Shown here piece by piece: positions 1 to 10,397 of a stretch of 11,089 nt of DNA. Position 1 is the first letter of the stretch; every line of letters starts with the position of its first letter. A program made the position numbers and the translations under genes. The notes below the pieces were generated by a model. It saw only the letters and a list, made by a program, of their open reading frames with translations. It ran no database searches and was not told the DNA's origin. The DNA is from Promethearchaeota archaeon (lineage in GTDB: Archaea > Asgardarchaeota > Lokiarchaeia > Sigyniarchaeales > SOKP01): positions 1 to 11,089 of the forward strand of contig JAGXNO010000075.1 in assembly GCA_019894975.1 (NCBI GenBank), written 5' to 3'.

Positions 1-179
1 TTGCAGAAGTAATAAAACCATCTAAATGTAAAATTGGTTGTACTACATGTGCAAATTTATGTTTAACTGAAGCTATAAAATTACCCCCACTTCCCGGACT
101 TTATAAACTAATGAAAAAGAGAAATATAATCGATTTATGCTGGAAAAATTTAGATTATAACAAATATATGTGGATGTAA
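1..179 (+). CDS. 4Fe-4S dicluster ferredoxin-family protein, 3' part (5' end outside window)
   Basis: Not in ORF track. Frame from nt 3 reads AEVIKPSKCKIGCTTCANLCLTEAIKLPPLPGLYKLMKKRNIIDLCWKNLDYNKYMWM* (TAA 177-179). CxxGCxxCxxxC..AI is a 4Fe-4S motif. Confidence 0.85.
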   Translation, partial: AEVIKPSKCKIGCTTCANLCLTEAIKLPPLPGLYKLMKKRNIIDLCWKNLDYNKYMWM

Positions 180-324: not shown

Positions 325-531
325 TTATAAGTTATATCCTAATGAGATAACAAACATTCTTCCGAATTTTTTCACCATTTTTTCTAAATTCACCACAAAT
401 TTCGGTTCTTTTAATATTCCGCATTGAGAGAGTTTTGAATCGCCTTGAAATACGCTTACAGCAAAGGTAGAACAAATTGGGTAACCACATTTACCGCAAT
501 TGGCTTTTGGTAAATAATTATAAAGCTCCAT
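325..531 (-). CDS. Small putative Fe-S cluster domain protein (PF04060-type, as in RnfB/CdhE N-termini); possibly 5'-truncated
   Basis: LPKANCGKCGYPICSTFA...CGIL matches the LPxxNCxxCGxxxCxxFA...C four-cysteine signature. Confidence 0.75.
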   Translation of the reverse strand: MELYNYLPKANCGKCGYPICSTFAVSVFQGDSKLSQCGILKEPKFVVNLEKMVKKFGRMFVISLGYNL

Positions 532-592: not shown

Positions 593-892
593 TTACATAT
601 TTATTATTGAATCGCTTTTAAAAATTAAATCAATCACATCATCAGAGGCAATTAATTTAATTTTATCTGAAATAAAATTAGACAATCCTCGGATTTCTAT
701 GTGCTCTTCACACGCAGCGACTTTTTTATTTTGATTGAGAGCTTGTGAAACTGCTTTATTAGATTTATTAGCAAAATACACTGCATTTTGAAGCAAAAGA
801 ATTGTTACATCATCTTCTTCAGTATGTTCCATAGCAAGTTCTACACCTGTAATATCTTCGCTTGTTATAAAATATAAAACTTTTTTGCTCAC
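593..892 (-). CDS. dsrH: DsrH/TusB-family sulfur relay protein
   Basis: ILLLQNAVY and EHIEIRGL...LI...VIDLI motifs; about 100 aa; third gene of an E-F-H trio. The start is likely GTG at 892 (GGAGG about 10 nt upstream) rather than TTG at 901, which nearly abuts the GGAGG. Confidence 0.85.
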   Translation of the reverse strand: MSKKVLYFITSEDITGVELAMEHTEEDDVTILLLQNAVYFANKSNKAVSQALNQNKKVAACEEHIEIRGLSNFISDKIKLIASDDVIDLIFKSDSIINM

Positions 893-906
893 CTTAATCA
901 AACCTC

Positions 907-1251
907 CTAAAATGGTATTGCAACAGTTGAATCTTCAATCATTTTCAAAATTTCACCGTGTTCTTTTACTTCAACTTGATCGATTAAATCATTTTTAGTA
1001 AGTCCCCGTTCATTAAGAGCCTTCCTATCTACATAGATGTCAAGATCTATATTTTTTATGAAATCTATGTGCATAGAATACATTGTTTTATCCACATCCT
1101 TAAGAAAGGCATAGACACCATCATTTATAGCAATGGTTATCGGTTCAAAATCACCACTAAGGGCGACAGTCATTCTTAAACCTTCAACAGGATAAAGCGT
1201 CCCCTGAGGAGGTTGCCGTAAAAGAATAACTATATTTTTTTCTTCTGACAT
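907..1251 (-). CDS. dsrF: DsrF/TusC-like (DsrE-family) sulfur relay protein
   Basis: PPQGT..VEGLRM, INDGVYAF, YVDRKALNERGL and a C-terminal IPF. No Cys. AGGTGAT SD-like motif upstream. Confidence 0.8.
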   Translation of the reverse strand: MSEEKNIVILLRQPPQGTLYPVEGLRMTVALSGDFEPITIAINDGVYAFLKDVDKTMYSMHIDFIKNIDLDIYVDRKALNERGLTKNDLIDQVEVKEHGEILKMIEDSTVAIPF

Positions 1252-1262
1252 TTTTTATCACC

Positions 1263-1625
1263 TTAACAAATTACTACTAGTCTATCAGTTTCATCTATAA
1301 TTTTCGCAAGATCAGGCGTGCCTGCTCTTTTCACATCGCCACATTCCTTTTTTAGACAGTATTTCATGGTACCCCTAACTAAAAGACAGAGGTTGCATAA
1401 TCTTACCGTAGCGCCCTTCTTCAGGATTTCTTTAAAACCCTCTTCGATGTTGAATATCCCTTCGATTTTTTTCTGGTTTTCTAAAAGCGCATTCACCGCA
1501 TCCATGTAGCAAAAAACACGAACTTCATGCCCTTTATCCAATGCGGCATTAGCTAACCTTACTACTGTTTCAGGGGCTTGTGTTTGATAAGGCCCGCTAA
1601 AAAAAAGAATTCCCAGTCGTGACAT
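1263..1625 (-). CDS. dsrE: DsrE/TusD-family sulfurtransferase
   Basis: SGPY, LANAALDKGHEVRVFCYMDAV and LCNLCLLVRG (Cys at the DsrE/TusD persulfide position, within a CxxC). Confidence 0.88.
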   Translation of the reverse strand: MSRLGILFFSGPYQTQAPETVVRLANAALDKGHEVRVFCYMDAVNALLENQKKIEGIFNIEEGFKEILKKGATVRLCNLCLLVRGTMKYCLKKECGDVKRAGTPDLAKIIDETDRLVVIC

Positions 1626-1650
1626 CTTTTTTCATCAACTCCATCTTATA

Positions 1651-2715
1651 TTAATTTTTTCTCCACATAAAAAGTAGATAAGCCATCAACCAACAACCGA
1701 GGATAATGAATACCCCAGATAATAGGCTTCCGAGAGAAAGAAGTGGAAAACCGCTTAAAATGTTACCTATATTGCATCCCATAGCTATGATTGCTCCAAT
1801 TCCCATCGCTAATCCACCAACAAATTGAATCAAGATAGTTTTTGCATGTTTAGGGGTTCTCAACTTGAATTCTTTTGCTATAATCGCACTAATAAAAGCA
1901 CCAATAACAATCCCTATTACTAACCATGTTTCCCAACCTAATACTGAATTAACTCCTGTATTCCAGAATTTATTCCAGCCGACCCAACCACCTGTAATCC
2001 CTAAAGGATAATTTCGACCAGATGCCGCTGAAGTCACATAAGCAAACGATGCTATTATTCCTATTGCAACTGCGGTTACAGCCCAATGCCATCCTTGTTT
2101 GAAAGTTTTTTGCCCAAAATTGGAAAAATCAAGCATGGGTTTATTTTCTCTTTTTTTTGCTCGTAATTCACGCCATATCCAAAAATAAGCAATTAAAGCA
2201 ATTCCTACTATACCAATGATTAACATAAATATTGGTGTGAGATCTCCAAAAAGTGTAAGTGCAGTGTTATCTGAGTACGTGATTTTTGTACTATCTTGTA
2301 AAGCTTTAGCTATGGGGTTAAGTGCTCCAACTTTCGTAAAATAAGCACCACCTGCAAACCCTAATAAAGCAACTAGTGAACCCATCATACCTTCTCCTAC
2401 TCGGTATGTAGTTCCACTTGCGCATCCAGCGGCTAAGACCATTCCGACTCCGAAAATTAACCCTCCGATAATGTTAGCACCCCATGCAAAATGCTTAGGA
2501 TTTAATGTAATTATGTCCGCAAATGACATTATTGCAAAACCTAACATTGACAGAAGTATTGCTAGTGCTACTGATTTTGCTAATTTGTACTCTTTTAATA
2601 ATATAACATCTCTAAAAGCAGAATTCATGCAAAACCTTCCTCGCTGTAATACAAATCCAAAAATAATTCCTAAAATTAATCCAGGAATTAACGCATACTG
2701 TATATCTATTGCCAT
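1651..2715 (-). CDS. yeeE: YeeE/YedE-family sulfur-compound (thiosulfate-type) transporter
   Basis: Polytopic 354 aa protein with GFVLQRGRFCM, GGLIFGVGMVLAAGCASG and GGLAMGIGAIIAMGCNIG, which carry the three conserved Cys motifs. AGGTGA SD-like motif upstream. Confidence 0.93.
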   Translation of the reverse strand: MAIDIQYALIPGLILGIIFGFVLQRGRFCMNSAFRDVILLKEYKLAKSVALAILLSMLGFAIMSFADIITLNPKHFAWGANIIGGLIFGVGMVLAAGCASGTTYRVGEGMMGSLVALLGFAGGAYFTKVGALNPIAKALQDSTKITYSDNTALTLFGDLTPIFMLIIGIVGIALIAYFWIWRELRAKKRENKPMLDFSNFGQKTFKQGWHWAVTAVAIGIIASFAYVTSAASGRNYPLGITGGWVGWNKFWNTGVNSVLGWETWLVIGIVIGAFISAIIAKEFKLRTPKHAKTILIQFVGGLAMGIGAIIAMGCNIGNILSGFPLLSLGSLLSGVFIILGCWLMAYLLFMWRKN

Positions 2716-2728
2716 TTTTTCTTTTCAC

Positions 2729-2962
2729 CTATTTTATTTTAACCAATATTTTCCATTCAGAAGCTCCAACTTTGTCAGTTGAAAGAACTTCATTTCCCAT
2801 TGATTTCATTGTTTCAGGAATTCTTTCTGCTGAAAGAGGATAATCTATCAAGATTTCTAGAACTTCTCCTGAATTCATTTTTTTAGCTTTCCTCTTACTT
2901 TTGACATCAGGGTAGGGACAAACCTCCCCTCTACAATCTAATGTTTCTGTAACATCAACCAT
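2729..2962 (-). CDS. tusA: TusA/SirA-family sulfur carrier (YeeD/YedF-like)
   Basis: 77 aa; LDCRGEVCPYP (CPxP motif); GEVLEILIDYPLSAERIP. Confidence 0.93.
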   Translation of the reverse strand: MVDVTETLDCRGEVCPYPDVKSKRKAKKMNSGEVLEILIDYPLSAERIPETMKSMGNEVLSTDKVGASEWKILVKIK

Positions 2963-2990: not shown

Positions 2991-3003
2991 TTACAATTTG
3001 TAA
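2991..3003. promoter_or_regulatory. Palindromic operator candidate 1 (TTACA-ATT-TGTAA)
   Basis: Perfect 5-3-5 palindrome about 28 nt upstream of the tusA start. Bracketed by a 12-bp inverted repeat (TTTTATCAATTT 2975-2986 / AAATTGATAAAA 3002-3013). Confidence 0.75.
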
Positions 3004-3137: not shown

Positions 3138-3150
3138 TTACAAAATGTAA
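3138..3150. promoter_or_regulatory. Palindromic operator candidate 2 (TTACA-AAA-TGTAA)
   Basis: Same motif, upstream of the TTATAATTATAA TATA-like element (3165-3176) of the lrp gene. Confidence 0.75.
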
Positions 3151-3197: not shown

Positions 3198-3210
3198 TTA
3201 CAATTTGTAA
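3198..3210. promoter_or_regulatory. Palindromic operator candidate 3 (TTACA-ATT-TGTAA)
   Basis: Same motif, exactly 60 bp from site 2, over the expected lrp transcription start. Confidence 0.75.
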
Positions 3211-3239: not shown

Positions 3240-3848
3240 ATGGATACACCTAAGAAATTTAAAAAAAAATTAAAGCTAGATAAGATCAACATTGAACTTT
3301 TCAAGTCTTTAGATGAAGATGGAAGGATAAATTATTCAAGAATCGGAAAAAAATTTGGTCTATCTCATGTTGCTATAAAAAACCGGTATGAAAACCTAAT
3401 AAAAAAAAATATTATTAAACCAAGCCTGTTAGTTAATTTTTCAAAGTTAGATTTCAAATTAGCAATTTTATTATTAGAATTAGAAACTGAGAGTCTTGAC
3501 AAAATAAAAGATATCTATTCTAAATGTCCCAGAGTTTTATTCTCTTTTAATTTAATAGGTGAATATAATCATCTTTTATTATTTTTTGCTGAAAATTTAG
3601 AAACTATAGAAACAATTTTTAATTCCTGTATGCTATATAATTTGAAGGGTGTGAGAAAGTCGAATATCCTACTATTTGGAAGTTTAAAAGAGGATCTCTT
3701 TTTACCTTTAAATTTATCTCAACTTGACCAACAAAATGAAAATACACCATGTGGAACTTGTTGCAAGTTTTGTAAATCTTTTATTAAAGGACAATGTATT
3801 GGCTGCCCAGCATCAAAATATTACGAGGGACCGTTAAAAATAACCTAA
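3240..3848 (+). CDS. Lrp/AsnC-family transcriptional regulator with Cys-rich C-terminal extension
   Basis: N-terminal LDKINIELFKSLDEDGRINYSRIGKKFGLSHVAIKNRYENL HTH; RAM-like domain (LIGEYNHLL, GVRKS); tail PCGTCCKFCKSFIKGQCIGCP. Confidence 0.9.
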   Translation: MDTPKKFKKKLKLDKINIELFKSLDEDGRINYSRIGKKFGLSHVAIKNRYENLIKKNIIKPSLLVNFSKLDFKLAILLLELETESLDKIKDIYSKCPRVLFSFNLIGEYNHLLLFFAENLETIETIFNSCMLYNLKGVRKSNILLFGSLKEDLFLPLNLSQLDQQNENTPCGTCCKFCKSFIKGQCIGCPASKYYEGPLKIT

Positions 3849-3949: not shown

Positions 3950-4729
3950 TTAAACATTTTTATTTTTTGATCTTCTTTTCTTTACTGCTCGAGTCTTATA
4001 CAATTCAACATATAAATAACGATCCATTTTCATCCAATATTTACATTTAACGACTCCTTTTTGTATTAAATCATCAGGAATACTTTCTTTTGTAATTATT
4101 CCTTTATTATTATCTTTTTTATGAACATATTCATAAATCCATGATGGAATCTTTTTTGCGTTTCCAAACCCTAATTTTTCATATATCACATCAATATATT
4201 CTTTATTGTCTGCACCTTGAATTTCACAAGAAACATTAATGAGCTCACTAATTGGTAAATGTTCGGGTTGATATTTATTATATATTTTTTTTACTTCAGC
4301 ATTGTAATTTTTGACAGATGGAAAGGTTTTGCATTGTTCAATAAACGCATCTCTCATAACTTCAAAAAATTTAGTGCTCAATATTAATACTCTATAAACT
4401 TTTATGACTTGAGAATATACATCTACCAACATTAAATTCAACTTTTTTGGACAAGTTTCCTGTAAAATTTTTTTATAGTTATTAACCTCCATTTCTGGAT
4501 AAAGACAATTTGAATAAGTAACATCACACCAATCTAAGTTTCCGATTTTAAATAATAGAAAAAATACGTTGGGTCTTACAATGAGTTTTAGGTTTATATT
4601 CTCTGATTTATATGCTTTAATTTCTTGTTTTGAAGGGATTTTCATACCAACAATTAAATTACTATTAATGTAGTCAAATTCTATAAAATCTTTATTCCAG
4701 GAAAGCTTCTGATGATATTTTTCATTCAT
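3950..4729 (-). CDS. Hypothetical protein (259 aa)
   Basis: Long ATG-initiated ORF in AT-rich DNA with protein-like composition; no family confidently recognised. Confidence 0.75.
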   Translation of the reverse strand: MNEKYHQKLSWNKDFIEFDYINSNLIVGMKIPSKQEIKAYKSENINLKLIVRPNVFFLLFKIGNLDWCDVTYSNCLYPEMEVNNYKKILQETCPKKLNLMLVDVYSQVIKVYRVLILSTKFFEVMRDAFIEQCKTFPSVKNYNAEVKKIYNKYQPEHLPISELINVSCEIQGADNKEYIDVIYEKLGFGNAKKIPSWIYEYVHKKDNNKGIITKESIPDDLIQKGVVKCKYWMKMDRYLYVELYKTRAVKKRRSKNKNV

Positions 4730-4841: not shown

Positions 4842-4854
4842 TTACAGATTGTAA
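4842..4854. promoter_or_regulatory. Palindromic operator candidate 4 (TTACA-GAT-TGTAA)
   Basis: Same motif, followed by C as at sites 2 and 3, in the divergent gap between the hypothetical gene and the hesB-like/tlpA/ccdA operon. Confidence 0.7.
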
Positions 4855-4954: not shown

Positions 4955-5284
4955 ATGAATGTGACTTTTTCGAATAAAGCGAGTGATTATATTAAAAAAA
5001 AAAATATTATTAATATTTTGGTAAAAATTTCATTTTTTATACAAGGTTGTGTTCATATTTATGAACCGAAATTAGAACCAATTCCGATAGATAAATTAGG
5101 AAATTTTGAGAAAAATGAACGGATTATACTAAATGGATTTACTATACTTCTATCAGATCAATTTCTAAAGATATATAATTCCCAAGAAGAGCTCCATATT
5201 GATTTGCAAAAATTCCCAAATCAAAAGCTAATATTAAAAAATCTCGATCCAATTATAATTCAAACATGCAAAATAGATAAATAA
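4955..5284 (+). CDS. HesB-like / CC-Se-motif-like small protein
   Basis: MNVTFSNKASDYIKKK...QGC...EP...LNGFTILL...LHIDL...KLIL resembles the HesB/IscA-like CC/Se family layout. One Cys at the motif and one near the C-terminus. Confidence 0.55.
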   Translation: MNVTFSNKASDYIKKKNIINILVKISFFIQGCVHIYEPKLEPIPIDKLGNFEKNERIILNGFTILLSDQFLKIYNSQEELHIDLQKFPNQKLILKNLDPIIIQTCKIDK

Positions 5285-5305
5285 GTAAAATTAAAAACTT
5301 TTAAA

Positions 5306-5980
5306 ATGTCAACAGAAAATAATAATTCAGATCAAAATACTAATACTCATAGAAAAGTACACTATAGGCTCGTTCGTTACAAAAAACTATCAAAATCTTA
5401 CTATAACAAATTTTTGACTCTATCTATCGTGATTTTCCCTACTATTATCGTAGTTGCATTATTAATTTCAGGAGGAATTTTTGATAACATGTTTAATGGA
5501 GGGGCCCCTAATATACCCACGATCCCTGATAACCCTACTGAACCTCCCACGGAACCTTATAAATCCGATATCACTTTAACAACAATTTATGGTCAGAAAA
5601 TTCAATTAGCAGATCATCAAGGTAAAGTAGTAATTATTTACTTTTTTGGTACTCACTGCCCTGGATGTCCAGAGCAAGCAAGTATTTTAGCAAATATAGA
5701 TGATATATACACTAGTAGTCAACTATATATAGTTCCAATATGCCTTGATACAACCGCTGAGACATCTAATAGTGAATTAGATGATTGGTTAGGAGGATAT
5801 GATCCTAATTGGCCAGTTATACGGGATACCGTTCAATATACGTATGCAAGTTATTTCAATCTAATGTACAAACCAACAGTGAAAATATTAGATATAAATG
5901 GAGATATTGAAGCTACAATGGTGGGTACAACACAAGGTAGTTTCAACAATATTAAAACACAAGTGGATGCTTTATTATAA
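5306..5980 (+). CDS. Membrane-anchored TlpA/ResA-like thioredoxin (redoxin domain)
   Basis: One TM helix, Pro-rich linker (PNIPTIPDNPTEPPTEP), LADHQGKVVIIYFFGTHCPGC, and YKPTVKILDINGDI with the cis-Pro. Confidence 0.88.
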   Translation: MSTENNNSDQNTNTHRKVHYRLVRYKKLSKSYYNKFLTLSIVIFPTIIVVALLISGGIFDNMFNGGAPNIPTIPDNPTEPPTEPYKSDITLTTIYGQKIQLADHQGKVVIIYFFGTHCPGCPEQASILANIDDIYTSSQLYIVPICLDTTAETSNSELDDWLGGYDPNWPVIRDTVQYTYASYFNLMYKPTVKILDINGDIEATMVGTTQGSFNNIKTQVDALL

Positions 5981-6004
5981 AAATTTAATTATCAAATTCT
6001 AAAA

Positions 6005-6733
6005 ATGTTTGATCTTGGATTATTTTTTATAGCAATTGGTGGAGGTATATTGTCTTTTTTAGCACCATGTAATATTGGCACACTACCAACTTTTATAGCA
6101 TATATTCAAGGTCAAACCAATTCAACTAAAAAGGCTATACTTATGAGTTTAGCGTTTTCTGTTGGATTTATCGCATTATTTACAATCGTTGCGACTCTTT
6201 TTATTGTTATATCTGGGTTTATACGTTATATTTTTTGGATAAAAATAATATCAGGCATTATTATAATATTAATGGCATTTTATCTTTTCTTCAGCAAATT
6301 TAATAAAAAAAAACCTCAAAACTATAAACCAACACAAGTAGAGGAGGAAGCTTTAAAGAACATTTATGGTATTAAACATGAAGAAGAAGAAAAAAAACAT
6401 CAAGGAATTTTAGGAGCAATAATTCTTGGGTGTTCTATGGGTTCACCTTGGATTGCCTGCATTACACCAATCTATCTATCCATCGTGACTATAGCTATGA
6501 ATCAAGAAACTTTTATTTTTGGATTTTTATTATTTTCTTTTTACGCGATAGGATTAATGATACCTTATATCCTTATAGGAACCGCATTAGGACTTATTAA
6601 CCAAAGAGTAATTGTTAAATTCTTTAAAATTAGTTCATGGTTGCAAAAATTCTTTGCTATATTATTAATTTGGATAGGAATTGAATTTTTACTGTCTGCA
6701 TTTGGTATTGGGGGGTTGCTACCTTTTATTTGA
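6005..6733 (+). CDS. ccdA: CcdA-family (DsbD transmembrane domain) electron transporter
   Basis: GGILSFLAPCNIGTLP, PWIACITPI, FYAIGLMIPY; about 6 TM helices. Confidence 0.88.
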   Translation: MFDLGLFFIAIGGGILSFLAPCNIGTLPTFIAYIQGQTNSTKKAILMSLAFSVGFIALFTIVATLFIVISGFIRYIFWIKIISGIIIILMAFYLFFSKFNKKKPQNYKPTQVEEEALKNIYGIKHEEEEKKHQGILGAIILGCSMGSPWIACITPIYLSIVTIAMNQETFIFGFLLFSFYAIGLMIPYILIGTALGLINQRVIVKFFKISSWLQKFFAILLIWIGIEFLLSAFGIGGLLPFI

Positions 6734-6756
6734 GTTTTATGGGTGTTATTTTAAAT

Positions 6757-7437
6757 ATGAATGTTGATATAATTATTGCCTTTGTTTCTGGATTAACTAT
6801 TGGTGCTACTCCATGTATTTTATTAATGGTTAGTGCTTTTGGTACTTCACTTATTTTAATAGAAGAAGAATTGAAATTTATAAAAATTGCTATTGGGTTA
6901 ATCTCGGGTCTAATCTTTGGTTATATTCTAATCTCGATACTGTTTCTCTTTTTCTTTCCCTTTTTGGAAGTTTTATATTTATTCAAGTATTTTTTTGCGG
7001 GAATTTTAATTTTAATTGGAATTTGGCAAATAATTGAGTGTAAAAAAGAAGATAGTATTATATTTGGTACTCCTGAAAAAGTTAAGAAAGTATTAAAGGA
7101 TTTTATTGAAAAAAAGACAGGTTTTTATGCCTTCCTGGTGGGAATTATTTTTGTTCTCATAAAAATGCCTTGTTTTGGAGGTGTTTATTTAGCATTAATA
7201 TATAATCTCCATACCAACCCCTTACTTTATGTATTCATCTTTGTATATTTAGTAGGGTTGGTTATTCCAATAATAACAGTTCTTATTCTTCTTAGATTGG
7301 GATTAGAGTCAAGAAAACTTAATGATTTTAGACTAAAGTATAGAACACAATTAAGAATATTAAGTGGGGTTATCATAATTTTTCTTGCTTTTTATTTATT
7401 AATACTAGATGATTTAATCAATAGTTTATTAATTTAA
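6757..7437 (+). CDS. Second CcdA/DsbD-transmembrane-like protein
   Basis: GLTIGATPCILL, KMPCFGGVY and YLVGLVIP; both redox Cys retained. The likely start is ATG 6757 (GGGTG upstream); the track uses TTG 6730. Confidence 0.8.
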   Translation: MNVDIIIAFVSGLTIGATPCILLMVSAFGTSLILIEEELKFIKIAIGLISGLIFGYILISILFLFFFPFLEVLYLFKYFFAGILILIGIWQIIECKKEDSIIFGTPEKVKKVLKDFIEKKTGFYAFLVGIIFVLIKMPCFGGVYLALIYNLHTNPLLYVFIFVYLVGLVIPIITVLILLRLGLESRKLNDFRLKYRTQLRILSGVIIIFLAFYLLILDDLINSLLI

Positions 7438-7829: not shown

Positions 7830-8612
7830 ATGAGACCACATCATAAGGAATCCATAGATAAATTGGTAGAAAGTATTAAACAAGATAACAGATTTTTAGC
7901 GCTTATTATTGGTGGATCCGTCGCAAAAGGCATGGAGAGAGAAGACTCGGATATTGATATCGTTCTTGTAGCCACTGATGAGGAATTCGAAAAACGAAAA
8001 AAAAAATCCATATTTATATATTATGAACAGAAGTTCTGTAATTATCCAGGAGGCTACGTAGATGGAAAAGTTGTCGACCTACAATTTTTAAGAACTGTGG
8101 CTGAAAGAGGGAGTGAACCTGCCAGAGATGCTTTTCGAGATGCGTGGATTGCTTATTCGAAAACTCCTGAACTTGAAGATATCTTAAATAAAATTCCTGT
8201 ATTCCAAAAAGAGGAAAAACTGAAAAAAATTAGAAAATTTTATGCTCAATTTGAATGCGCTAACTGGATTATCAAGGAAGCGGAGAGAAGAAACGATGAC
8301 TACCTGTTAACACGAGGAATTACAGATCTAATACTATTTGGCGGCAGATTAATCCTTGAATATAATGAGATTTTATATCCCTTTCATAAATTATTTATGC
8401 AAACTCTAGAAAAAGCACCTGATAAGCCTGAGAATCTAATGTCTTTGATAAATTCTTTATTGAATGAAAGGAATTTTAAAAATGCTGAAGTATTTTATGA
8501 TGCAGTAAAAAATTTCAGGAAATGGGAAACCCAAAAGTTTTGGGCGATAAGATTTCTACTTGATACTGAGTGGGCATGGATTAATGGAAAACCATATGTA
8601 GGAGATCTCTAA
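7830..8612 (+). CDS. Pol-beta superfamily nucleotidyltransferase domain protein
   Basis: IIGGSVAKG..EDSDIDIVLV (GS...DxD) plus a downstream VD; helical C-terminal domain. Confidence 0.85.
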   Translation: MRPHHKESIDKLVESIKQDNRFLALIIGGSVAKGMEREDSDIDIVLVATDEEFEKRKKKSIFIYYEQKFCNYPGGYVDGKVVDLQFLRTVAERGSEPARDAFRDAWIAYSKTPELEDILNKIPVFQKEEKLKKIRKFYAQFECANWIIKEAERRNDDYLLTRGITDLILFGGRLILEYNEILYPFHKLFMQTLEKAPDKPENLMSLINSLLNERNFKNAEVFYDAVKNFRKWETQKFWAIRFLLDTEWAWINGKPYVGDL

Positions 8613-8759: not shown

Positions 8760-9317
8760 TCAATAATAAATTTTATCTGTTATAACCTTTCTTTTATCTG
8801 AAATATCTATTCCTTCCATTTCCAGAAGTTTTCGCTTCATTTCAATACCACCTTGATATCCACCAAGTTCTCCATTTGTTTTAATCGCTCTATGACAGGG
8901 TATAATTATAAGAAAAGGATTCTTAGCTAAAGAATTTCCAACAACTCTTGCACCGTTCGGTTTACCAATTTTTTCCGCAATTCGCTTGTACGTACTAACC
9001 CATCCCCTCGGGACTTCGGATTCCGCTATAAGTACTTTCTTTTGAACTTCAGAACATGTATTAAAGTCAAGTAGCTCTAAATCGAATTCTACTTTTTCTC
9101 CTTTAAAGAACCGTTGGATTTTCTCTCCAATGGATGTGATCTGTGAAGATGAGCCAGCACTAATTTGTTCGAAAGATTCAAGAGCTTTAATTTTGGATTT
9201 AAGTTGAGGATCACTAAGAAATACACGCTGAATCCGTAAATTAGAGTCAACTTCCCTCCATACAATAGTAAAAGTATCAAAAGGAGAAGAAAAAGTTGAG
9301 TAAAATAGATACACCAT
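8760..9317 (-). CDS. ogt: Methylated-DNA--protein-cysteine S-methyltransferase
   Basis: VPRGWVSTYKRIA, ARVVGNSLAKNP, IIPCHRAI active site, LGGYQGG..MKRKLLEMEG. Confidence 0.95.
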   Translation of the reverse strand: MVYLFYSTFSSPFDTFTIVWREVDSNLRIQRVFLSDPQLKSKIKALESFEQISAGSSSQITSIGEKIQRFFKGEKVEFDLELLDFNTCSEVQKKVLIAESEVPRGWVSTYKRIAEKIGKPNGARVVGNSLAKNPFLIIIPCHRAIKTNGELGGYQGGIEMKRKLLEMEGIDISDKRKVITDKIYY

Positions 9318-9609: not shown

Positions 9610-9655
9610 TTTTCTGAAAAAAATTAAATATTCAGAAAAACATACTATATGTATG
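9610..9655 (+). promoter_or_regulatory. vapBC promoter with two inverted repeats (probable autoregulatory operators)
   Basis: TTTTCTGAA (9610-9618) / TTCAGAAAA (9631-9639) flank TTAAATA (9624-9630). CATAC-TATAT-GTATG (9641-9655) overlaps the ATG. Confidence 0.6.
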
Positions 9656-9913
9656 ACAATCCAAGATAAGACTATTGTTGGAAAAAAGGGAGAAATACTT
9701 CCGAAAAAACTTTTAAGAGATATGGCGGGAATAAATCCAGGAGATGAAGTACTGATAGAGGCTTTTAAGGGTGAATTAATAATCAAGAAGATCTATTCGA
9801 TAGACGAAGCCTTGAGTATGCCGGTTATTGATTCAGGGACTCCTACAAGTATTGAAAAGGATCTTGAAGAAGAAAGATTACTACAGGAGAAATTGACAAA
9901 TGAAGAACATTAA
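9653..9913 (+). CDS. vapB: AbrB/MazE/SpoVT-family antitoxin (VapB-like)
   Basis: VGKKGEILPKKLLRDMAGINPGDEVLIEAFKGELIIKK swapped-hairpin motif; acidic tail; overlaps the PIN gene by 14 nt. Confidence 0.88.
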   Translation: MTIQDKTIVGKKGEILPKKLLRDMAGINPGDEVLIEAFKGELIIKKIYSIDEALSMPVIDSGTPTSIEKDLEEERLLQEKLTNEEH

Positions 9914-10397
9914 GCCACTCATACTTGACACAACATTTATCTTACCTTTATTCGGTATAAAAATTAAGATCGATGATGATTTTGAAAGTGATATTAAACG
10001 AGTTTGGAAGAATGAGATTGATGGCTATGTTGTTTATTTACCATCAACATGTCTGATTGAGACGGTATTCAAATTATTAAATGTGTACAAGAAAACAAAT
10101 GATTTTAATGTTTTAGATAGATATCAAATGATTCTTCCTACATTGCTTAACTTACCAATCAATATCTTTAATTGTGAATTGAATCCAAAAGCAAGTATGA
10201 TTGCTTCAGTTATAAGACATTATGGACATCCTGATTTTATGGATTGTTGGATAGCTGCGACTGCAGCAGTATTGAATGGAATCTTTCTGAGTGAAGATGT
10301 AGAATTAAAAAAAAATTTAAAGAATATTCCAGAAACAAAAAATCTATCAGTATCCTCTTGGAAGGAATTTAAAATGAAGATAAAAATGAAGAAATGA
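9900..10397 (+). CDS. vapC: PIN-domain toxin (VapC-like)
   Basis: ILDTTFIL, LIET, DFMDCWIAATA and LSED supply the four PIN acidic residues. Confidence 0.9.
   Translation: MKNIKPLILDTTFILPLFGIKIKIDDDFESDIKRVWKNEIDGYVVYLPSTCLIETVFKLLNVYKKTNDFNVLDRYQMILPTLLNLPINIFNCELNPKASMIASVIRHYGHPDFMDCWIAATAAVLNGIFLSEDVELKKNLKNIPETKNLSVSSWKEFKMKIKMKK

Follow-up and report, generated by a model that had tools for sequence, protein, structure and literature searches.

The window analysed here, the whole 11,089-nucleotide stretch of DNA from a Promethearchaeota archaeon, contains at positions 3240..3848 (plus strand, stop codon included) an open reading frame that encodes a 202-residue Lrp/AsnC-type regulator with a cysteine-rich tail. 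Divergent from this gene is a putative target operon (593..2962, minus strand) with the order tusA-yeeE-dsrE-dsrE/F-dsrH. Pfam and NCBIfam matches identified its products as TusA (2729-2962, minus strand), a YeeE/TsuA-like protein of the Sulf_transp family (1651-2715, minus strand), DsrE (1263-1625, minus strand), a DsrE/F-like protein (907-1251, minus strand), and DsrH (593-901, minus strand), as expected from an earlier reading of these letters made without database searches (hereafter the sequence-only reading), which had placed the regulator next to sulfur-relay genes. On the other side of the regulator there is a second putative target operon, hesB-like/tlpA/ccdA (4955..7437, plus strand, from Pfam). 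Its first gene (4955-5284, plus strand) encodes a 109-residue protein with two cysteines (C32 and C105) and a HesB/IscA-like match to PF01521 that extended over its full length and scored below the family cut-off (E 0.017, 15.8 bits), making the sequence-based call of an A-type carrier a weak one. This gene is followed by those for a TlpA/AhpC-type thioredoxin-fold protein (5306-5980, plus strand; AhpC-TSA/Redoxin), a CcdA-type protein (6005-6733, plus strand; DsbD_TM), and a second membrane protein (6730-7437, plus strand).

Several other features of the window were noted. A 259-residue ORF (3950-4729, minus strand), which lies between the regulator and the predicted operator 4 described below, matched no Pfam family, and in orthologous loci (e.g., L013 and L014) it varies in position or is absent. 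At the window edge (3-179, plus strand) a ferredoxin-like ORF is present with its C-terminal end, and positions 325-531 (minus strand) encode a 68-residue protein with the "putative Fe-S cluster" motif of PF04060, as seen in the N-termini of RnfB and CdhE. Toward the far end of the window are a VapBC-type toxin-antitoxin pair (9653-10397, plus strand), in which an AbrB/MazE-like antitoxin gene (86 residues) overlaps that of a PIN-domain protein (165 residues), and two genes unrelated to the regulator finding, one for a nucleotidyltransferase-domain protein (7830-8612, plus strand) and one for an O6-methylguanine-DNA methyltransferase homolog (8760-9317, minus strand).

The assignment of the regulator to the Lrp/AsnC (FFRP) family is solid. 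A Pfam scan placed an AsnC-type winged HTH at residues 13-53 (3276..3398, plus strand), with PF13412 (HTH_24) scoring 23.4 bits, above its 21.9 cut-off, and PF13404 scoring 26.9 bits against a cut-off of 27 (E 4.3e-6). We placed the RAM (effector/oligomerisation) domain at residues ~62-149 (3423..3686, plus strand) on the basis of a weak match to PF01037 (residues 79-142, E 0.033), the structural model, and superposition on solved Lrp. The AF2 model, for which 45 homologs were the input, had a pLDDT of 88 and a pTM of 0.78 for the whole protein (pLDDT 82-90 in the tail); it showed winged HTH helices at residues 15-27, 32-38, and 43-55, and a RAM region with beta-alpha-beta-beta-alpha-beta order. 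The Foldseek PDB matches listed at E<=1e-5 were Lrp/AsnC/FFRP regulators (9w4w, 7fby, 2p6t, 2e1c, and others), and ~150 residues of the model superposed on solved Lrp/AsnC structures with a probability of 1.00 and a TM(target) of 0.7-0.8, leaving the tail with no counterpart in the matched structures. As the ORF, the Pfam HTH matches, the confident model, and the fold matches agree, the Lrp/AsnC identity that the sequence-only reading gave to 3240-3848 stands. The two cysteines it reported in the RAM region are likewise present, Cys96 in KCPRV, which is the CPR motif of the RAM domain (codon 3525-3527), and Cys130 in NSCML (codon 3627-3629).

Alignments and a tail-profile search delimited a C-terminal Cys module at residues 166-202 (3735..3845, plus strand). 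The tail has six cysteines (residues 171, 174, 175, 178, 186, and 189), as the sequence-only reading had seen when it described a CxxCCxxC-x7-CxxC pattern, but across family alignments position 174 varies between C, N, S, D, and K, so the "CC" pair of that description is not a feature of the family. The conserved tail motif is instead P-C-G-x-x-C-x-x-C-x-x-[FY]-x4-C-x-G-C-P, i.e., C-x3-C-x2-C-x7-C-x2-C, which in the regulator extends to PCGxxCxxCxxF-x4-CxGCP-x4-Y-x-GPL. In homologs down to 50% identity C96, C130, C171, C175, C178, C186, and C189 were invariant and C174 was variable. A wider comparison, which took in 64 diverse full-length members with a mean identity of 31%, showed C96, C175, C178, C186, and C189 without exception (64/64) and C171 in all but one (63/64), with P97, G188, P190, and Y195 near-invariant; C130 was kept in 43 of the 64, and of the subgroups without it some had a His at a distance of one or two residues and others a Ser. 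Judging from these alignments, the universal set is made up of five Cys in the tail and a single one in the RAM domain, to which the window's subfamily adds C130. C96 sits where the usual "lPeV" loop following RAM helix 1 (alpha1-beta2) has a hydrophobic residue. It is for this reason a peculiarity of the tailed proteins, and one that speaks for joint action of the RAM domain and the tail. Two of the cysteines are part of Cys-Pro motifs (C96-P and C189-P), and G or P residues adjoin the Cys. When the RAM domain (62-149) and the tail (150-202) were predicted as a complex, the score was 0.31 (mark 0.32), a value that we read neither for nor against contact between them. The candidate idea of selenocysteine in the module was rejected, as the in-frame TGA of several family genes from other genomes turned out on inspection to be the natural C-terminal stop codon.

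HMM searches and structure prediction, which the sequence-only reading had proposed for the tail, yielded a confident model but no relatives. The tail-only AF2 model (53 residues) had a pLDDT of 88; it had no Foldseek match in the PDB, and a wide VIA-align search returned nothing at Z>=2, which for a metal-less model of 53 residues is a weak test. Residues 141-202 matched no Pfam family at E<=10 and no NCBIfam family, and searches of the tail profile against PDB sequences gave only chance-level matches to the Zn-finger of USP5 (ZnF-UBP, E 0.29).

The sequence-only reading had further likened the tail to DUF3795 (PF12675). The regulator is not a DUF3795 member, since PF12675 gave no match at E<=10 to either the tail or the whole regulator (the family cut-off is 22.6 bits), a PF12675 scan of the whole genome found ten genuine DUF3795 regions elsewhere and did not pick up the regulator ORF, and the second Cys-rich half of the domain is missing from the tail. 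DUF3795 copies in this genome consist of CGxxCxxC, a spacer of 9-50 residues, CxGC, and a second Cys-rich half (C..C...C...C..C..FPC) that ends in FPC. The regulator tail has in common with these an N-terminal CGxxCxxCxx[YF] followed by CxGC, whereas its spacer is 4 residues and the protein stops 13 residues past CxGC. At the level of this CGxxCxxC...CxGC motif the resemblance is real, since hhalign of the family alignment with the own-genome DUF3795 copies gave a probability of 82% (E 1e-5) over the 15 columns PCGxxCxxCxxY, and a relaxed alignment of the tail with DUF3795 (mact 0.05) gave 84% over 29 columns, although with a narrower tail profile the probability was only 16%. The pattern that had been pointed out was thus confirmed and the domain was not, and on the profile evidence the tail and the first half of DUF3795 may have a distant common origin. 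DUF3795 itself has no solved structure, no characterised cofactor, and essentially no literature that we could find; the likeness therefore says nothing on what the tail binds.

A word-based search identified 58 close homolog clusters of similar length (195-219 residues), and the source names among these were only Promethearchaeota (Asgard) MAGs. When 1.84 billion cluster representatives were searched with the tail profile (E<=1e-3), 113 clusters at 50% identity were found to carry the module. Given these 58 and 113 clusters, the sequence comparisons indicate a module that is real and conserved far beyond chance. Nearly all of the tail-profile matches were ~185-205 residues long with the module at the extreme C-terminus and an upstream "CP[R/Y/L]"; ten longer matches were Lrp proteins with extra N-terminal domains (a KaiC-like ATPase, a second HTH), and among the full-length proteins examined there was no case of the module outside an Lrp context. 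In six-frame scans of sampled genomes with the tail profile, the window's phylum (homolog source names being Promethearchaeota, Asgard) gave matches in 161 of 301 genomes and, among those of high quality, in 57 of 90, with up to 8 copies per genome. The scans also gave matches in 33 of 201 genomes of a second archaeal phylum, that of a "Euryarchaeota archaeon" MAG. All of the named sources of family members were uncultivated archaeal MAGs. Our literature searches found nothing specific on an Fe-S or Cys-rich Lrp/AsnC regulator, or on this family in Asgard archaea, and the Cys-tailed Lrp/AsnC family is apparently undescribed.

The regulator's own genome encodes a second, distant Cys-tailed Lrp, P0059 (C93:23729-24298, minus strand, equivalent to L009:5727-6290), which has CPRV, NFC, and an identical tail spacing (C-x3-C-x2-C-x7-C-x2-C). 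This paralog gene is directly upstream of genes for the small and large subunits of a NiFe-hydrogenase and a 4Fe-4S dicluster ferredoxin; on its other flank are a MarR-type gene and CcmE/CcmC-like genes.

Gene neighborhoods of other family members varied. The divergent tusA-yeeE-dsrE-dsrE-dsrH cluster recurs beside homologs at 82% and 63% identity, where the other flanks differ, and one 67% homolog has nitroreductase, thioredoxin, and ETF genes as neighbors. Homologs at 52-59% identity are found with FMN reductase (FMN_red), a pair of Thioredoxin_3 and ArsP_1 permease genes, ArsR-type regulators, and SBF carriers, and distant family members are found with TauE exporters or, in one case, HdrABC-like genes. 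At L010/L011 (JGI Ga0366834_1006475) and at L015, two Cys-tailed Lrp paralogs are 3 kb apart in a gene island with several ArsR-type regulators, SBF/ACR3-like carriers, an ArsP_1 permease plus Thioredoxin_3, FMN reductase, DGC-domain proteins, and a GcvH-DGC fusion; this looks like a metalloid or thiol-stress island. In ~20 sampled loci of one lineage in the window's phylum (L041-L075) the regulator is in a non-sulfur context, the order being thymidylate synthase (~207 residues), Cys-tailed Lrp, hexapeptide-repeat transferase (~196 residues), and EF-G/EF-2-like GTPase (~570-630 residues). The context theme of the window's subfamily is sulfur, thiol, and redox traffic, and this theme is not universal in the wider family. 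Because the wider family also occurs in thymidylate synthase/EF-2 and hydrogenase contexts, "sulfur status", the signal named in the sequence-only reading, may be too narrow for the family as a whole.

Exact copies of the 13-bp palindrome TTACA-N3-TGTAA (5-3-5) occur six times in the 3.9-Mb genome, and four of these are in the window within 1.9 kb. All four are intergenic and three are in the divergent promoter region between tusA and the regulator. Six genomic copies are fewer than for most composition-matched palindromes, and from these counts we estimate the chance of finding four of the six within 1.9 kb to be of the order of 1e-9. The centre of predicted operator 1 (TTACAATTTGTAA, 2991..3003) lies 35 bp before the tusA ATG (minus strand), and that of predicted operator 3 (TTACAATTTGTAA, 3198..3210) lies 36 bp before the regulator ATG. 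Between the two is predicted operator 2 (TTACAAAATGTAA, 3138..3150), at distances of 147 bp to operator 1 and 60 bp to operator 3. Predicted operator 4 (TTACAGATTGTAA, 4842..4854) is ~107 bp upstream of the hesB-like/tlpA/ccdA operon, counting from the ORF at 4955.

The arrangement of these sites was reproduced in homolog loci. Over 19 such loci, 27 of 49 palindrome sites (<=1 mismatch) fell within the 320 bp that precede the regulator gene, a region that makes up 3% of the sequence. Eight loci including the window have a palindrome at -36/-37; in the other seven (L013, L016-L020, and L023) it is exact in six and has one mismatch in L020, and L014 has a one-mismatch palindrome at -43. The spacing of operators 1 and 2 is constant at 147-148 bp in L013, L016, L018, and L020, and that of operators 2 and 3 varies from 60 to 69 bp across homolog loci. 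At the relative position of operator 4 (+1604 to +1612), L016 and L019 have an exact palindrome and L017 has a palindrome with one mismatch. The palindrome is also kept at L015, a family member of 52% identity in a different gene context, so it tracks the regulator and not the targets. From this co-location we infer that the regulator binds TTACA-N3-TGTAA. A 13-bp palindrome of 5-3-5 form with an A/T centre is the operator form of FL11-type archaeal FFRPs. For the wrapping of DNA around an Lrp octamer, a length of ~150 bp has been proposed (PMC7830388). The two exact palindromes outside of the window are both in heterodisulfide-reductase-like loci (G000:C117:4598 and G000:C109:25055), one being ~60 bp upstream of the start of an HdrA-like gene, at the end of an HdrB-like ORF, and the other inside an HdrB/C-like ORF that adjoins a 1037-residue HdrA-like gene; these may be further regulon members or a coincidence.

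The reading that we prefer, and to which we assign a probability of roughly 0.55, is that the regulator is an autoregulated Lrp-type factor that acts at TTACA-N3-TGTAA and has a sensory metal centre, with Fe-S favoured as the cofactor. The HTH would read the palindrome at the regulator's own promoter, resulting in autoregulation, and the regulator would most likely control both the tusA-yeeE-dsrEFH sulfur-uptake/relay operon and the hesB-like/tlpA/ccdA thiol-redox export operon. Repression seems the likelier sign of this control, since the sites ~35 bp before two start codons are at positions of an archaeal core promoter or a short-leader transcription start; the region is too AT-rich for TATA/BRE calls by eye, and we therefore infer the direction of regulation from these positions. 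In place of an amino-acid effector, the five tail Cys and the RAM residue Cys96, joined by Cys130 in the subfamily, would form the metal centre, and such a centre, shared by the RAM domain and the tail, is what the six to seven conserved Cys, the Cys-Pro motifs, the G/P surroundings, and the His near position 130 in some Cys-lacking subgroups point to. The presence or the oxidation state of an Fe-S cluster would alter the oligomer or DNA binding, and the expression of sulfur-trafficking genes would in this way be tied to cellular sulfide/Fe-S/redox status.

Within this preferred reading, a sensory Fe-S centre as such is a possibility that we place somewhat short of even odds. At about that likelihood we also place the full proposal of a founding example of an Fe-S-cluster Lrp/AsnC family, common in the window's phylum (about half of the genomes sampled) and found in at least a second archaeal phylum. 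The RAM domain (C96, alone or with C130) and the DUF3795-like tail would share one cluster in place of the amino-acid effector, perhaps with an open or exchangeable iron that could read sulfide or persulfide directly, and the regulator would set a regulon of sulfur/selenium-uptake/relay and thiol-export genes at TTACA-N3-TGTAA. Points against a sensory centre are that C130 is not universal and that the ~20 loci with thymidylate synthase, hexapeptide transferase, and EF-2-like GTPase genes present a non-sulfur context; in addition, CxxC-x7-CxxC also fits a structural Zn knuckle. The last point leads to the possibility that the module is a purely structural Zn site, either a Zn(Cys)4 knuckle or a binuclear Zn2Cys6-like site that includes C96, which would staple the tail to the RAM domain or stabilise the oligomer and leave the RAM domain to bind a small-molecule effector. 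The resemblance of C175-x2-C178 and C186-x2-C189 to two zinc knuckles is consistent with such a site, as are the strict invariance of the Cys, the housekeeping contexts of many family members, and the identity of the sole sub-threshold PDB motif match, the chance-level one to the USP5 Zn-finger. We nevertheless consider structural zinc unlikely: six to seven conserved Cys are more than one Zn(Cys)4 site takes up, the RAM Cys is recruited at the usual effector-domain surface, and the Cys-Pro signatures together with the repeated redox and sulfur neighbors fit sensing. Fe-S sites are generally common in anaerobes, which the family's sources, uncultivated archaeal MAGs, may be, and this too would point away from zinc.

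The cysteines might instead work as a free-thiol switch with no resident cofactor. Either S-S(n)-S bridging or direct coordination would then carry the response, be it to disulfide stress, to persulfide/polysulfide, or to a soft metalloid (As(III), Sb(III), or selenide); SqrR/BigR/CstR and ArsR work in such ways. This option is suggested by the ars-like islands of members at 52-59% identity, with their ArsR-type regulators, SBF/ACR3-like carriers, ArsP_1, Thioredoxin_3, and FMN reductase, and by the yedE, tusA/D, and hesB-like genes of Methanococcus maripaludis, which respond to selenium supply (PMC11097638). It would also suit the TusA, DsrEFH, and YeeE neighbors, which carry or move reactive sulfur. 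However, the sensors known for persulfide and As(III) rely on 2-3 Cys, compared to the 6-7 invariant Cys in a compact CP/CG-rich motif here, the His near position 130 in some subgroups suggests metal ligation, and the regulator has no homology to the ArsR, CsoR, or FisR sensors; we regard a free-thiol switch as less probable again than structural zinc.

The regulator was compared with several known systems. Archaeal Lrp/AsnC feast/famine regulators (FL11, LrpA, Grp, and PH0140; PDB 2e1c, 1i1g, 7fby, and 9w4w) have the same winged HTH plus RAM architecture with ~150 superposable residues, and the regulator is like the FL11-type FFRPs in its autoregulatory palindrome placement and in having multiple sites spaced for wrapping. 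It differs from the ordinary archaeal Lrp/AsnC proteins by an extra module of ~40 residues with conserved tail Cys and by C96 in the "lPeV" loop, and whereas ordinary Lrp has an amino-acid effector we saw no evidence for such an effector here. In architecture, the closest characterised counterpart is CopR/CopT (PF0739), in which a copper-sensing TRASH Cys domain is joined to the C-terminal side of an Lrp core (PMC7830388), a precedent for metal sensing by a Cys domain on an Lrp protein. The two are alike in the appended C-terminal Cys-based domain, in transcription divergent from the target, and in the octamer-wrapping model (PMC7830388). However, the TRASH motif is C-x19-22-C-x3-C, so that Cys count and spacing differ from the C-x3-C-x2-C-x7-C-x2-C of the regulator tail, and a RAM-domain Cys takes part only in the site proposed for the regulator. 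TRASH/YHS-type Pfam families gave no match at E<=10 to residues 141-202, and the target of CopR/CopT is copA, whereas the putative targets here are sulfur-relay and thiol-redox genes.

The proposed logic, with DNA binding governed by the occupancy or redox state of a cluster on Cys ligands, resembles that of established Fe-S sensors (IscR/NsrR/RsrR of the Rrf2 family, FNR, SoxR, WhiB-like proteins, and NreB), and IscR also offers a parallel for sulfur-handling genes that receive feedback from the supply of clusters or sulfur. The folds and motifs of these sensors (e.g., C-x2-C-x11-C-x2-C in NreB) are, however, unrelated to those of the regulator, and no Fe-S sensor of the Lrp family was described in the literature that we searched. 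Regulation of TusA/DsrE-type sulfur-trafficking genes by Cys chemistry has precedents in SqrR/BigR and sHdrR/SoxR (ArsR type) and in CstR, which are two-Cys switches from protein families other than Lrp.

Few kinds of regulator are commoner in archaea than the Lrp/AsnC proteins. Nearly all of those known read amino acids, the one well-studied exception being CopR with its response to copper via TRASH. What seems to be new here, on the sequence evidence, is an Lrp regulator with a new appended module, for which we propose a sensory role. If this is true, the Cys module joined to the RAM domain would be a second, TRASH-unrelated, and new type of input for Lrp/AsnC regulators. For few Asgard archaeal transcription factors have an operator, a regulon, and a sensory site been predicted. 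The regulator would also give a first functional handle on the CGxxCxxC...CxGC motif common to DUF3795, and it bears on how the acquisition of sulfur (or selenium) via TusA/YeeE/DsrEFH may be controlled in these archaea.
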